Part shown: positions 1,812-62,742 of the stretch, one piece after another
Layout: each line of letters begins with the position of its first letter
Numbering within the stretch: the first letter of the stretch is position 1
IMG/VR virus record: IMGVR_UViG_3300021379_000005
Span: 32,001-96,000 of that record
Length of the DNA stretch: 64,000 bases
Reading direction: 5' to 3' (one strand)
From: a virus
Taxonomy: Duplodnaviria; Caudoviricetes
Program-made: the position numbers and the translations under genes
The notes under the pieces: model-generated
Seen by the model: only the letters and a program-made list of their open reading frames with translations
What the model was told of the DNA's origin: nothing
The model's database searches: none

Positions 1812-4800
1812 TCAACTAAAAAATCTGTTGCCCAATTCTCTATCAACAAATGGGCCAATATATTTATTTGCTGATAAGACAGGCGTTAAGACATATAATT
1901 TTATCTCACCATCTCTCATTACGATTGTACCAAGTTCCCTTGTTCCATCATCCTGACTGGGTGGATTGCTTGGTGCGTCTTCATCAATTTCTTCATCGTT
2001 TGTGGGCGGAACTGGTGGATCATCGTCAGGCTCTTCACTTGGAATGACTGGTGGTTGTGAATCATCGTCAGGCTCTTCACTTGGAATTACTGGCGGTTGT
2101 GAATCATCATCAGTTTCTTCATCTTGAATAACTGGTGGTTGACCATCATCATCAGTTTCTTCGTCTGGAATAACTGGAGGCTCAGAAACATCTGGAGTAT
2201 CATCTTCGTCACTGACAGGCGGTTGTGAAACGTCTTCTGTATCATCAGTATCTGTTACTGGTGGTTGTGAAACGTCTTCTGTATCATCAGTATCTGTTAC
2301 TGGTGGTTCCGAAACATCTTCTGCAACGTCTTCATCAGTAACAGGTGGGTCAGAAACGTCTTCCGTATCATCAGTGTCTGTTATGGATGGCTCAGAAACA
2401 TCTTCAGTAGTATCTTCATCATCTACCGCCGGTGTTGTATCATCCTCTTGTGTATCATCTAATGTTTCATCGGCACCATCTTGGTCAGTTTGTCCTTCTC
2501 CATCGGAAACTCTTACTGATGGGTCTGTTTCAAAATCATCTTCTTCGCCAGGCGGCACCCCAGGCTGGTCTTCTGGGACTTCATCATCCGAACCAGTAGG
2601 AACTTCTTCGTTATCTGTATCATTTCCATCTGTAACTGGTGGAGTTGTGTCATCCTCTCCATCCTCATCAGTAGAGGGAACTGAATCGGTATCATCAACA
2701 CCGTCTTCATCAGTAGAGGGAACTGAATCGGTATCATCAACACCGTCTTCATCAGTAGAGGGAACTGAATCGGTATCATCTACAGTGTCATCCCCAGATG
2801 ATTCTGTTGTGTCCGTATCGTCACCAACGGTTTCATCATCTGATGTAGATGTATCTGTTGCATCATCTACTACATCCTGTTCTCCGCCAACTCCAGCATC
2901 AGTATCTTCTACAGCATCATCTTCACTTGTCGAGTCTCCAGATTCATCTGTAGTTACATCTGTACCATCTTCGGTAGTATCCGTTTCGTCACTAACCGTA
3001 TCATCTTCACTTGTCGAGTCTCCAGATTCATCTGTAGTTACATCTGTACCATCTTCGGTAGTATCCGTTTCGTCACTAACCGTATCATCTTCGCCTTTAG
3101 TGTCACTTGGTTGATCTGTAGTTACATCTGTACCATCTTCGGTGGTATCCGTTTGATCGTCAACCGTATCATCTTCTGAGGTTGGTTGTCCAGACTCATC
3201 TGTGGTTTCATCTGCGCCGTCTTCGGTGGTATCAGTTTCGTCCTCTGTTTCATCTACAGACGGTTCTACTGAAGTAGTATCATCTTCTGTTTCATCTACA
3301 GATGGTTCTACTGAAGTAGTATCATCTTCTGTTTCATCTATAGATGGTTCTACTGAAGTAGTATCATCTTCTGTTGCATCTGTTTCTGTTTCTACTGAAG
3401 TGGTATCATCTGTAGTTTCATCTATATCTGATACGGGCGGTTGGTTTTCATCATCACGATCATCGACATCAACCTCTATACCATCATTTTCATCATTCGG
3501 TTCTTCCGAATCAATGACTGGTTCATTTAGCTCATCAGTAGTTTGATTATCATCGGTAACAGAAGTTGTTGAGTCATCTTCAGATGCAGTATCATCGGTA
3601 ACAGAAGTTGTTGGGTCATCTTCTACATCGGTGTCATCAGTAACAGAAGTTGTTGAGTCATCATCTGAAGTTTCAGTATCTACTACCGTTGTTGTTCCAT
3701 CATCTTCTGTCTCGGCATCATCAGTAACAGAAGTTGTTGAGTCATCTTCAGATGCAGTATCATCGGTAACAGAAAGGGTAGAATCATCATCAGAGGTTTC
3801 ATCTGCACTAGAAGTTGCATCACTATCATCATCCAAACCATCATCACCAACATTAGTGGTTTCTTGTTGATCTGCTGATGTATCAGAATCAGATTCAGTA
3901 TCACCAGATTCATCTACTGATGTATCTGTGTCCGTAATAGTTTCTATTTGTTGATCTGCTGATGTATCAGAATCAGATTCAGTATCACCAGATTCATCAA
4001 CCGGCGTGTCTGATTCCGTTTCTGTTACAGTTTGTTCATCTGTAACATCACTTGCATCATCTGAAACTGGTTGTACTTCATCTTCAACCTCAGAGTCTGG
4101 TGTCTCAGTCGTAATTGGGTCTTCTTCTGGTACTTCACTAGGGGTTGTAGTTTCGTCTGACGCATCTTCTGGTGTTTCGGTATCAGTAACACCTTCAAGT
4201 TCAGAATCAGAAACCACATTTCCATCAGATACAGTCTCTGAAGATTCGTCTTCCTCATCTAAAGAGGGCGAAAGTGTAGCATCCGTATCATCATCAACGC
4301 CAGCATCTGAAGACTCTGTGGTGTCTGTGGCATCGTCTATTGTTGCATCTGGAGACTCAGTAGTGTCTGTGGCATCGTCTACAGTTGCATCTGGAGACTC
4401 AGTAGTGTCTGTGGCATCGTCTATTGTTGCATCTGGAGACTCAGTAGTGTCTGTGGCATCATCTACAGTTGCGTCTGGCGACTCAGTAGTGTCTGTGGCA
4501 TCGTCTACAGTTGCATCATCTACTGAAGTTTCTGTGACCTCATCATCGACACTTGTATCAGAAGTTGTTGAATCTGCACTATCTTCTTCGACAACTTCTC
4601 CATCACTTCCAACTGAAATTTGTTCGTCTGAAGTGGTGTCCTGCGAATCTGCTGTTTCACTGGCAGCATCCAACTTTTCTTCCAGTTGCTGTTCTTCTGG
4701 AGACTCTTCTGTTCTTTCTTGTTCAACACCTTCTGTTGTTTCTACTGTGGTATCAATATCTGCAGTAACTTCTTCTACTACATCTTGTTCTTCTGAACTA

Positions 4801-59846: not shown

Positions 59847-60194
59847 TCAGAATGTAAAGCGAACACCAACTGATGTATCTTCATATTCAAAGTCATGATC
59901 TGCACTAATATCACTGTAAAGAGAAAGTGCAGGAGATACTGCATATGAAACTCCCAAATTAACACCGTCAAAATTAATTGTATCAGATGCTAAGTTACGG
60001 TCATATGAAAAATCTGCCCATGGGCGCAGCACCAATCCTTGTGGAAGTGCCATTGTGTATCCTAATTCAGATGTAAATTTTTCATTTTCCAAACTATATT
60101 CAACTTCACCATCTACATGGCCTCTAATGCCTTCTGCCATTGCAGATGTGCATAAAAAAACCGCCGAAGCGGCTCCAACTAAAAACTTTGTCAT
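59847..60194 (-). CDS. Small outer-membrane beta-barrel-like protein
   Basis: Signal peptide (MTKFLVGAASAVFLCTSAMA), amphipathic beta strands and a C-terminal VGVRFTF BAM-type motif. Confidence 0.7.
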   Translation of the reverse strand: MTKFLVGAASAVFLCTSAMAEGIRGHVDGEVEYSLENEKFTSELGYTMALPQGLVLRPWADFSYDRNLASDTINFDGVNLGVSYAVSPALSLYSDISADHDFEYEDTSVGVRFTF

Positions 60195-60214
60195 TTATTA
60201 AATCCTTTTACTAT

Positions 60215-60600
60215 GACTGCGGGCCCGTTTGGTAACAAGGTGGAGCCCATACCCCGCTGATTATGCTGCTAGAGCAAATTCAGGTGCAAAGTTATCGTTT
60301 GCGTTTAGTTTTGTTCGACCGAATATCGTAGGTCAACACGGTAATCTACTCTCATCTCTACACACCTGTCGATCCTAGTTCGCCCCCATCATAAACACAC
60401 GAATAAGTAATGGCCCAAATCTATAACTTTTATAAGGATTCCCACTGTTAAATCTAAATTCGCCCCATTGAAAAGGTGTTCCTTTAAACCAACTAATCCA
60501 GTGCCAATCCCAATTCATTATATCCTCATGTGTTTATGGTGGAGGCGTTGGGTACTGCCCCCAAGTCCAGTATGCATGTTGAATCGTATCAACAATTACA
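60215..60600 (-). ncRNA. ssrA: Circularly permuted two-piece tmRNA (alphaproteobacterial type)
   Basis: Acceptor piece comes first (T-arm TTGGG-GGCAGTA-CCCAA, CGCCTCC-A-CCA ending 60537). Coding piece starts GGGGGCG at 60387, giving a G3:U alanine pair. Tag frame 60302-60261 reads ANDNFAPEFALAA*. Outer ends are approximate. Confidence 0.9.
60375..60518 (-). CDS. 47-aa Trp/Phe-rich ORF inside the tmRNA intervening segment
   Basis: GAGGA-TATA-ATG; MNWDWHWISWFKGTPFQWGEFRFNSGNPYKSYRFGPLLIRVFMMGAN*. Confidence 0.5.
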   Translation of the reverse strand: MNWDWHWISWFKGTPFQWGEFRFNSGNPYKSYRFGPLLIRVFMMGAN

Positions 60601-60604
60601 AGTT

Positions 60605-60635
60605 TATTTATACACTATTCTTTTATTTTTGTCAA
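60605..60635 (-). promoter_or_regulatory. Overlapping sigma70-type and T4 late promoter for the tmRNA
   Basis: TTGACA (60635-60630)-17 nt-TATAAA; the -10 box is part of TATAAATA (60612-60605). Confidence 0.75.
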
Positions 60636-60812
60636 GCAAAAAATAATATAAAAAATATAGTGTAATAATACAACACCAAGAAATTCATACAATACGATAT
60701 TTTCTTCTGGTGTAAATACCATTAAACTTTTTCCAAATAAACCTAAAAGGAATAAAAGGATAAAGTAAGAAACTATGGGGATACACACAAAGTACCCCCA
60801 ACTTATTTTCAT
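60615..60812 (-). CDS. Small two-TM membrane protein (65 aa)
   Basis: Hydrophobic; ATGA overlap with the endolysin stop. Confidence 0.55.
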   Translation of the reverse strand: MKISWGYFVCIPIVSYFILLFLLGLFGKSLMVFTPEENIVLYEFLGVVLLHYIFYIIFCLTKIKE

Positions 60813-61264
60813 ACCATCAGCTCAAAGTGTGGAGCGTCAATAAATGGGCGTCTTCCTTGAGAGCGCCTCAAATCAACATAGGCGTTCATGGCGTCTTCCA
60901 TGGAACCATCCCACTCTCTAATGTCATCAATGTGCCAGGCTGCGCCCCAGCGGACTGCTACACCTTCTTCTATTGCAGCGGCCTTCATTGCGTCTGCAAC
61001 TTCATCATACACATTGAGTTCCCAGACTCCACGGCCTCCAACATAAGCCATTAAGTCTACTGCAAGTCCGTCAAGATGCTTACTCTTCATTGTTTGACTT
61101 GCACCCTTAGCAACTAAAGCCTCTTGTTCTTCAAGAGTTCTTAAACCTTGGATCACTCCAAAGTCGACCTCAGTCAATTCGATAGCACGGCTGACAACTC
61201 TAACCATGTCATCATGAACACCTTCCAGTTTAGAAAGTGATCTGTTTGATAATTTAAAAGTCAT
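60809..61264 (-). CDS. M15-family peptidase endolysin (L-Ala-D-Glu peptidase type)
   Basis: LSNRSLSKLEGVH, GLRT.EEQ..LV.KGASQTM.SKHL.G.AVD, RWG..W and FIDAPHFEL. Confidence 0.9.
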   Translation of the reverse strand: MTFKLSNRSLSKLEGVHDDMVRVVSRAIELTEVDFGVIQGLRTLEEQEALVAKGASQTMKSKHLDGLAVDLMAYVGGRGVWELNVYDEVADAMKAAAIEEGVAVRWGAAWHIDDIREWDGSMEDAMNAYVDLRRSQGRRPFIDAPHFELMV

Positions 61265-61944: not shown

Positions 61945-62742
61945 TCAAAAAAAACTATCAATCGTAATATCTGCCTTGTATCTTGCGATATTACTCTTAT
62001 TATGTTTTATGTCATTACTGTGAATGAATGGCATATCATCACACCATTCGTATTCTGTTTCGCCAGGCCGTTTAATTTTCCACTGCAAATCATCATCTTT
62101 TGGATACTGATTTGTCCAACAACAAGTTGAATATCTATTCATATACTTTCTATCTGTTTTTGTCAATGGATAGATATATCTGAACTGTTTACCCCATACT
62201 CTTGAAAACCCCATATCACCCATTTTGGCGTCATTTGGTCGAGGGCCATACTTCGTATCATGTCTACCCATCTCTTTCTTCATCTTCCTCTGTATAGTCC
62301 TAAAATGCACCTTCTCGCCTGTCTCAGAGACATATACATCAGACCATATAAAACCGCCGTAAAGAAAGTTTGCAGATTGGTAAACATATCCTGGCTTTCC
62401 AACTATTCCATCTGCCCAAGTATACAGATATTTTGCATCTGTATTTTCACGCATCCACTTTACCGTTTGAGATAACATTTGGGATTCGGAGTTTCTGGGC
62501 ATAGAATCATCCATGCACATCTTTCCGATCTCAAAGTAATCGGATGTAGTCAAATCTGGAAACATCTTTTTAATAGTTCCCATCGGATTAGTTCCCCATC
62601 CTAATGTTAAAACCCCAACCAACTTATCATCTAAGTGAAAACCTAGATAATGTTTAGTTAATCGAGGCATAACTGCAGAATAATGGCGTTCTGCAACAAA
62701 TACAGAAGCATTATTCTTGTGAAGGGGCCTTATATCATACAT
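61945..62742 (-). CDS. Mom-like (GNAT-fold) DNA modification protein
   Basis: FV.ERHYS, LVGVLTLG, EIGKMC.DD..PRNSES..LS and TWAD...GYVYQSANFLY.G, as in phage Mu Mom-family proteins. Confidence 0.7.
   Translation of the reverse strand: MYDIRPLHKNNASVFVAERHYSAVMPRLTKHYLGFHLDDKLVGVLTLGWGTNPMGTIKKMFPDLTTSDYFEIGKMCMDDSMPRNSESQMLSQTVKWMRENTDAKYLYTWADGIVGKPGYVYQSANFLYGGFIWSDVYVSETGEKVHFRTIQRKMKKEMGRHDTKYGPRPNDAKMGDMGFSRVWGKQFRYIYPLTKTDRKYMNRYSTCCWTNQYPKDDDLQWKIKRPGETEYEWCDDMPFIHSNDIKHNKSNIARYKADITIDSFF

Follow-up and report, generated by a model that had tools for sequence, protein, structure and literature searches.

In two-piece, or permuted, transfer-messenger RNA (tmRNA) genes, such as those of Caulobacter, of Methylophilales phage Melnitz and of pelagimyophages, an acceptor piece with the T arm and the terminal CCA is followed by an intervening segment (IVS) and then by the coding piece, with a G3-U pair in the acceptor stem and a tag of the ALAA type. 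Phage-borne two-piece ssrA genes were described for Melnitz-like and SAR11 myophages (PMC9004378), and the available text of that study discusses a glutamine riboswitch at the 3′ end of ssrA, which Rfam confirmed in the Melnitz locus (L121), and not the IVS. Genes nested in segments missing from the mature tmRNA have been reported: according to the available portion of the 2025 tmRNA database paper (PMC11915505), LAGLIDADG homing endonuclease genes occur in tmRNA group I introns, one tRNA-Ala, called unique, lies in the IVS of a permuted tmRNA, and one IVS harbors a repetitive element; a protein-coding open reading frame (ORF) within an IVS is not mentioned in that portion. The present analysis concerns the permuted tmRNA gene found in bases 32001-96000 of the marine phage record IMGVR_UViG_3300021379_000005, a stretch of 64,000 nucleotides (nt) referred to as a whole as the window. 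It was found that the IVS of this gene very probably houses a bona fide small-protein gene, expressed from the pre-tmRNA and selected independently of the tmRNA. The IVS, so far treated as a disposable spacer, is at this locus the best-conserved part of the tmRNA gene and, as judged by its conservation, protein-coding.

The locus represents a variant both of genes nested in removable parts of RNA genes and of dual-function transcripts. It shares the piece order, T arm, G3-U stem, CCA and ALAA tag with the two-piece tmRNAs mentioned above, from which it differs in that the sampled bacterial IVSs are short and non-coding, whereas its own IVS of 149 nt contains a conserved protein gene. As with the nested homing endonuclease and tRNA-Ala genes, a separate gene occupies a segment missing from the mature tmRNA; however, those passengers are mobile-element enzymes or RNA, and that of the window is a small protein that is not an enzyme and shows no sign of being mobile by itself. 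In the dual-function RNAs SgrS/SgrT and RNAIII/hld, the same mature molecule is both riboregulator and mRNA. A functional RNA and a small protein gene would likewise share one transcript in the window, but here the coding part is excised, and the two functions would belong to different processing states, a new arrangement among the few RNAs known to combine the two roles. A literature search retrieved no published protein-coding ORF in the IVS of a permuted tmRNA, older tmRNA papers and supplements lying outside its coverage, so that an earlier mention is possible. Similarly, no coding sequence is annotated inside ssrA in the available text of the Melnitz paper (PMC9004378) or in the GenBank records.

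Judging from covariance models and piece order, the gene in the window is a real alpha-type permuted two-piece tmRNA. ARAGORN called a permuted tmRNA at 60170-60630 on the minus strand, the strand of all features of this locus, with the tag ANDNFAPEFALAA. The region scored 123.2 bits with the Rfam model tmRNA_permuted (RF04321; gathering threshold 47), being its single match across the entire virus record, and 114.6 bits with alpha_tmRNA (RF01849; gathering threshold 50), and its best cultured match was the tmRNA of Melnitz, a T4-like marine myophage. Both the Rfam alignment and the reading of the sequence gave the order expected of a two-piece tmRNA, with the acceptor piece upstream, then the IVS and then the coding piece. 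The acceptor piece (60537..60599; RF04321 model positions 1-63 and ARAGORN) comprises the T arm, the 3′ acceptor strand, the discriminator A and CCA, its terminal ACCA lying at 60540-60537. The coding piece (60218..60387; RF01849 alignment and ARAGORN) starts with G1 at 60387 and includes the 5′ acceptor strand GGGGGCG (G3-U), the pseudoknot region, the tag frame and the 3′ tail. The tag reading frame (60261..60302, from the ARAGORN tag, with the RF04321 alignment ending at 60261) encodes ANDNFAPEFALAA followed by TAA, that is, a hydrophobic degron of the ..ALAA type and a stop.

Between the two pieces, the IVS (60388..60536; 149 nt) is absent from the mature two-piece tmRNA and appeared as an unaligned insert in both Rfam alignments. 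A previous inspection of the same DNA, the sequence-only reading, had proposed an IVS of about 149 nt between the CCA at 60537 and G60387, closed by an extended helix and containing a GAGGA motif and a 47-codon ORF whose end and stop lie inside the 5′ acceptor strand, and the segment and the ORF were both confirmed. The Shine-Dalgarno (SD)-like GAGGA (60523..60527) is located 4 nt 5′ of the ATG (60518-60516), and it is kept in most homologous IVS copies. The ORF comprises 47 codons and a stop (60375..60518), with a conserved core formed by codons 1-43, and is supported by the ORF list, homologues, codon bias, the ratio of non-synonymous to synonymous differences per site (pN/pS), a profile and a predicted fold. 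Its last four codons and the TAG (60377-60375) fall within the 5′ acceptor strand of the coding piece, the stop being inside the mature coding piece and 13 nt past the RNase P site; this expected site, between AU and G, splits codon 44, leaving 43 whole codons within the IVS. The closing helix was recovered in the minimum free energy and centroid folds as the pairing of TAAACACATG (60527..60536) with CGTGTGTTTA (60392..60401), which contains one G-U pair. The 3′ strand is followed by TGAT and also codes for R-V-F, and residues R40, V41 and F42 are invariant in the alignment of close homologues (A1). The extra CCA/TGG pairing by which the sequence-only reading had extended this helix clashes with the acceptor stem and is unneeded. 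A closing helix of at least 9 base pairs, unbroken from IVS nt 1, was present in 48 of 86 unique viral IVSs with 23 distinct 5′ strands, and by this comparison the terminal helix of the IVS is covarying across loci.

The evidence that the ORF is a gene comes from its homologues. Among 5.8 billion proteins, 26 candidate clusters were retrieved and all 26 passed as homologues, with 69-100% identity, every one of them unnamed or 'hypothetical'. A DNA search pattern obtained by back-translation of ORF residues 3-12 matched 36 viral contigs, giving a total of 38 ORF copies with that of the window, of which one was interrupted by a contig end and 37 were full over the core. All 37 complete copies were open across the 43-codon core, with no frameshift, stop or indel. 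Among 18 unique core sequences, the variable columns at codon positions 1, 2 and 3 numbered 8, 6 and 25 (8, 5 and 22 once the 29 nt set by the search pattern were excluded), and one glycine codon took all four third bases. In codons 13-42, which are free of the search pattern, pS was 0.252 and pN was 0.041, a ratio of 0.16. Moreover, a minimum spanning tree distributed 40.5 synonymous and 18.5 non-synonymous changes over 18.3 and 71.7 sites, respectively, corresponding to an omega of ~0.12 (binomial p = 5e-15). These sequence comparisons indicate that the IVS ORF is a protein-coding gene under purifying selection. The codon-level conservation to which the sequence-only reading had pointed as a check was borne out as this synonymous bias, and the frameshifts and stops that it associated with a non-coding spacer were absent from the 37 complete copies.

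It was also considered how the ORF had evolved relative to the tmRNA around it. ARAGORN called a permuted tmRNA in 25 of the 36 pattern loci, and the IVS ORF sits in tmRNAs bearing nine different tags, that of the window included. Among 15 distinct loci, the mean nucleotide distance was 0.081 for the ORF outside the pattern and 0.363 for the tmRNA, the latter taken over the T arm, the acceptor strand and the first 190 nt of the coding piece. In a second comparison, ORF identity exceeded that of both flanks in 114 of 120 pairs. The two distance matrices were correlated (Mantel r = 0.45, P = 0.0002, n = 15), a pattern that speaks for long co-inheritance rather than for a cassette that has spread recently. 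On account of this correlation and of the pS of 0.25, pure cassette swapping was dropped as the cause of ORF conservation. Vertical co-inheritance and strong selection account for most of the ORF conservation, and some exchange remains.

The small-protein gene was shown to persist without a working tmRNA around it. In one form, which makes up many of the protein clusters, the ORF lacks an acceptor piece and has its own GGGGAG and ATG and a C-terminal extension (L124). In another contig (L155:5041-6001), two ORF copies 814 bp apart, each with its own SD and start, flank a thyX-like gene, with a phage lysozyme gene before and a purM-like gene after them, and both copies retain a decayed tmRNA 5′ strand after R-V-F. 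An identical SD-plus-start string stands ahead of thyX and of the second copy, resembling a duplicated cassette boundary. Degenerate or orphaned acceptor pieces beside an intact ORF were also observed (L133 among them). In L127 and L131, the intact ORF follows a degenerate acceptor end, TCCTACCA, and precedes a promoter and a complete tmRNA; this downstream tmRNA, on the minus strand in L127, contains in turn an IVS of ~150 nt whose 41-codon ORF is a different one, and the cluster P0031 likewise suggests two ORF cassettes in tandem. In L152 (1049-2110), an orphan acceptor piece and an intact tryptophan-rich ORF stand before an HNH endonuclease gene that is read from the opposite strand (L152:1251-1757; PF01844, 22.6 bits). 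Beyond it lies a complete tmRNA with a new promoter, in which a 32-nt IVS separates the acceptor piece from the coding piece. This layout resembles the trace that would be left if an endonuclease had driven a replacement at the tmRNA locus. L153 presents the ORF with its own stop and a second, non-coding IVS unit in tandem. Furthermore, a 1723-nt metatranscriptome contig of run X4, from a close relative, carries 51 other letters in place of window positions 60401-60527 (127 nt), with 3 differences from the window in 60231-60400 and 27 in 60528-60900. This replacement and the tandem and relic arrangements indicate that the IVS slot is recombinationally active, the ORF being kept at every place where it has ended up.

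As to the encoded protein, a profile of the 26 homologues, compared with 1.84 billion representatives, recovered 40 clusters at E <= 1e-3, 12 of them at E <= 1e-10, which were mostly of 42-50 residues with unrelated C-termini. The family alignment presented an aromatic-rich first strand, the motif F-N-x-G-x-P-Y-x-x-Y-R-x-G-P and a hydrophobic last strand; in its diverse version (A2), N24 and G26 were invariant and Y29, Y32 and R33 nearly so. With this alignment, AlphaFold2 gave a mean predicted local distance difference test (pLDDT) score of 88.9 and a predicted template modeling (pTM) score of 0.64, the modeled strands covering residues 2-7, 16-24, 27-34 and 37-42. Thus, the protein is confidently predicted to be a four-stranded antiparallel beta sheet with a core of 42-43 residues. 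The top ESM Atlas match (0.80) was under its own lead threshold and was unusable. A DNA motif of the family core matched 59 viral contigs, 44 of them new, in which mostly free-standing genes of 42-55 codons were found. By sequence similarity, the window ORF belongs to a wider unnamed family of ~45-residue proteins with members seen on viral contigs, and it offers a foothold on this widespread family of tiny proteins. An ARAGORN tmRNA was found near the family gene in 8 of the 44 further loci and was lacking in the remaining 36, a few kb having been examined for each. Two loci, L311 and L285, have the family ORF in the 5′ leader of a two-piece tmRNA, after the promoter and immediately before the acceptor piece, and in L295 (190-318) it lies 620 nt upstream of a two-piece tmRNA. 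The family is thus repeatedly, and not always, linked to tmRNA genes.

Other phages also carry ORFs in the same place. Viral loci found by the tmRNA 5′ 20-mer alone (119) yielded 86 unique IVSs of 14-264 nt, of which 29, in ~20 families, were at least 100 nt long. In 11-12 of these 20 long-IVS families, unrelated to one another and found in marine and freshwater phages, a candidate ORF takes up 74% or more of the IVS, beginning a short way inside the 5′ helix strand and in most cases preceded by a GGAG-like motif; such coverage is a weak statistic, as antisense frames were as long in 5 of the ~20 families. Four IVS ORF families have independent support, namely the window type and three others. 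The L108/L046 pair has a membrane-like ORF of 76-77 codons, with 10, 4 and 30 differences at the three codon positions and one in-frame codon indel. The 68-codon ORF of L036/L114 matched DUF2061 over its full length (E = 1.2e-3), a score short of the Pfam cut-off. The fourth type was found in Melnitz itself (MZ577097; L121:2554-2715, inside ssrA), whose 54-codon IVS ORF, behind a GGAG, is unannotated in the GenBank records. It was 68% identical to that of L019 over 38 residues, with differences of 10, 8 and 21 per codon position, and this type was present in all 17 copies examined (16 from viral-contig relatives), always in the IVS, with a 24-nt in-frame indel between subtypes; its first 23 codons showed no third-position bias (9, 7 and 10). 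This unannotated ORF in a cultured phage makes the idea accessible at the bench. Annotation pipelines that call the tmRNA mask the IVS. Two further viral IVSs were observed. In the viral contig L082 (3299-3720, minus strand; tag ANFMFASAPLRLAA), a tRNA-Arg(TCT) at 3532-3608 is nested in a 111-nt IVS, and it would be the second nested-tRNA case after the tRNA-Ala called 'unique' in the available portion of the database paper (PMC11915505). In the 469-kb Sinorhizobium phage Phosso (PV764938; L277:306-714), a permuted tmRNA has an IVS of ~409 nt with no obvious ORF or Rfam family, and the tmRNA region carries no annotation in the record.

The same 20-mer served for a bacterial control, in which 120 loci gave 103 unique alphaproteobacterial IVSs with a median of 40 nt, nine of them at least 100 nt long, in agreement with the short segment described for such tmRNAs in the sequence-only reading. 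Among the long bacterial IVSs, there was one doubtful ORF (L197) and one clear ORF (L237). The latter, filed under a bacterial genome, lies in a 260-nt IVS with a G+C fraction of 0.31 and is the same 76-residue ORF as that of the viral L108; L237 is probably of phage origin and was binned with a bacterium.

At the RNA level, a sigma-70-like promoter candidate precedes the acceptor piece (60607..60635), formed by TTGACA at 60635-60630, a 17-nt spacer and TATAAA at 60612-60607. The automatic promoter scan skipped it, as its rule demands a T at position 6 of the second hexamer. Its function would be that of the tmRNA promoter, and the arrangement TTGAC..TATA(A/T)AT recurs upstream of the acceptor piece in aligned homologous loci. 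Since the promoter scan found no further promoter-like site between this candidate and the ORF, the latter would be transcribed within the pre-tmRNA. Contigs from RNA libraries of two studies span the IVS and parts of the tmRNA, namely X3 record 10 (60368-60555) and X8 record 27 (60391-60562); parts of the window lacking RNA-contig cover were not used as evidence. Because the ORF is, by its conservation, a genuine coding gene, the pre-tmRNA or a processing intermediate must also be an mRNA. The corresponding claim of the sequence-only reading is thus supported by way of the purifying selection on the ORF, from which its translation would follow.

In the proposed mechanism, the tmRNA promoter would drive a pre-tmRNA carrying the small-protein gene, which has no promoter itself, and ribosomes would start at the GAGGA and ATG just inside the closing helix. 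Initiation would most likely take place during or soon after transcription, before the 3′ helix strand and the acceptor stem form; this timing is the most plausible one because the 3′ helix strand is made ~125 nt later. Both the closing helix and the 5′ acceptor strand would be opened by a ribosome that reads to the end of the ORF. With the stop 13 nt beyond the RNase P site, normal termination at the window locus would need an uncleaved precursor. In this way, translation and RNase P cleavage would compete for the same molecules, and the locus poses the question of how the ribosome and RNase P compete on one precursor. The protein would be selected for its own sake and work independently of its tmRNA, and the IVS would act as a permissive, well-expressed and recombination-prone slot.

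The position of the stop varied among the copies. Most tmRNA-borne copies stop at the same tmRNA-encoded codon (..GAN*, ..GAK*), and six tmRNA-borne copies stop within the IVS, five of them as ..RVFM* and L153 as ..RVFI*. Relic, free-standing and 5′-leader copies carry ordinary stops of their own. In four protein clusters (P0006, P0027, P0028 and P0029), the frame stays open for ~38 more codons through the tmRNA 5′ region and ends in the tag frame, for example as ..ANDNFEPEMALAA (..ALAA). Translation of a precursor of this type would yield a protein with a degradation tag in cis. Only the core of 42-43 residues is under selection, and the tail after R-V-F is whatever sequence follows.

Several observations weigh against the reading of the IVS as the site of a genuine small-protein gene expressed from the pre-tmRNA. 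When the IVS interior was shuffled 2000 times with its dinucleotides preserved, an ORF of at least 47 codons arose in 4% of cases, and for this reason the coding status rests on conservation and not on length. Because the search pattern that yielded the loci for the statistics lies within the ORF, the apparent conservation is inflated and copies broken in the first 12 codons are missed; in the set anchored on the tmRNA, only two loci, the window and L101, carry this IVS ORF, and the protein had no tblastn match among 50,697 phage records and thus no cultured phage carrier. Regarding the protein, Pfam gave no family at E <= 1, PHROGs gave none at E <= 0.01 for eight family members, Foldseek at E <= 1e-3 gave 0 of 304 matches in PDB and 0 of 469 in BFVD, and AlphaFold2 with the 26 close homologues alone produced an unusable model (pLDDT 49.5). 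The RNA contigs come from libraries possibly containing DNA and show neither RNA ends nor ribosomes. Finally, in the predicted fold of the precursor, the closing helix is extended over GAGG, pairing it with the 3′ helix strand, and such pairing would hinder initiation on the folded precursor. The idea that the frame is open by chance, within a structured spacer that codes for nothing, could draw on the shuffles and on the long antisense frames of some AT-rich IVSs; however, it is contradicted by the third-position bias, the pN/pS, the absence of indels in 37 copies, the distant homologues and the fold model, and it is regarded as extremely improbable. The act of translation, and not its product, might instead matter, with the ORF controlling the folding or processing of pre-tmRNA in the manner of a leader peptide, given that it crosses the 3′ helix strand and the 5′ acceptor strand and that a ribosome would melt both. 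Yet a purely cis-acting ORF need not keep its residues, and here the amino acids are conserved, homologues occur outside any tmRNA and the fold model is confident, making such a role very unlikely. A small-protein gene selected for its product remains the preferred explanation.

The sequence-only reading had gone further, proposing that maturation is coupled by design to peptide synthesis: RNase P would remove the stop codon, and the product of the resulting non-stop message would be tagged and destroyed by the tmRNA, with mutual regulation as for arfA. The geometry of the window agrees with the first step, the cut falling in codon 44 and the TAG 13 nt downstream, and so do the tmRNA-encoded stop shared by most tmRNA-borne copies and the stops beyond G1 of about half of the other IVS ORF candidates. 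A precedent is found in the arfA mRNA, a non-stop message whose product is repressed by trans-translation according to the available text of PMC10107115, and the window ORF would similarly be stop-less after RNase P cleavage. However, the loss of the stop is a conserved regulatory design in arfA, while the stop position is labile among the window homologues, as seen in the six copies stopping inside the IVS, the four clusters reading through into the tag frame, the ordinary stops of the relic, free-standing and 5′-leader copies and a tail that is merely what follows R-V-F; the processing event in the window also differs, being the tRNA-type maturation of the host RNA itself. Moreover, the strong purifying selection argues that the protein is made and kept, and not made for destruction. 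A non-stop message after the cut at G60387 is therefore logically sound for the window locus, as far as its sequence goes, and not a conserved design; coupling as such is considered unlikely. A somewhat better, still rather unlikely case is that of a protein acting as partner or modulator of the phage tmRNA or of trans-translation, co-made on the same transcript. The family is linked to two-piece tmRNAs in three ways, by the ORF within the IVS (the window and at least 25 further loci), by the 5′ leader position (L311, L285) and by the copy 620 nt upstream (L295), and a tmRNA was called in 8 of the 44 further family loci. The predicted complex with SSRP_PELUB (Swiss-Prot), a stand-in SmpB, scored 0.00 and gave no answer, which is evidence neither way. 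Against such a partnership, 36 of the 44 further loci were free-standing without tmRNA in the few kb examined per locus, copies outlast decayed tmRNAs, other phages have a variety of unrelated ORFs in this slot, which better fits a permissive site, and the loose linkage could reflect regional synteny of early genes. If it were true that the protein acts on ribosome rescue, it would be the first phage protein factor tied to a phage tmRNA. A bolder combination, in which the phage IVS is a general gene slot, the beta protein acts on trans-translation, a race between ribosome and RNase P sets the output and delays maturation, the tmRNA clears the cleaved non-stop message and some relatives tag themselves in cis, is quite unlikely as a whole. 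The evidence taken together favors a small-protein gene expressed from the pre-tmRNA and selected independently of it, with the promoter, the translation from the precursor and the competition with processing as its conditional parts.

The parent virus record is linear, with 128,880 bp and an estimated completeness of ~79%, and the G+C fraction of the window is about 0.32-0.43. The genes near the tmRNA encode a PhoH protein, a PD-(D/E)XK nuclease, a Peptidase_M15_4 protein and a Mom-family protein, the last at 61945-62742 (minus strand). The endolysin-like Peptidase_M15_4 gene (60809-61264, minus strand) is followed by a 65-codon hydrophobic ORF (60615-60812, minus strand), with which it may form a lysis pair, and the end of this hydrophobic ORF overlaps the tmRNA promoter region. 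A lysis-related role of the IVS protein, suggested by these neighbors, namely Peptidase_M15_4 and the ORF with two transmembrane segments upstream in the window, and by the lysozyme gene before one of the L155 copies, was rejected, as the neighbors differ among 12 other loci. Directly after the tmRNA, a 115-codon ORF (59847-60194, minus strand), without a Pfam family, has a signal-peptide-like start, ends in ..RFTF and resembles a small outer-membrane protein; a terminator-like hairpin (60179-60163) lies within its first codons.

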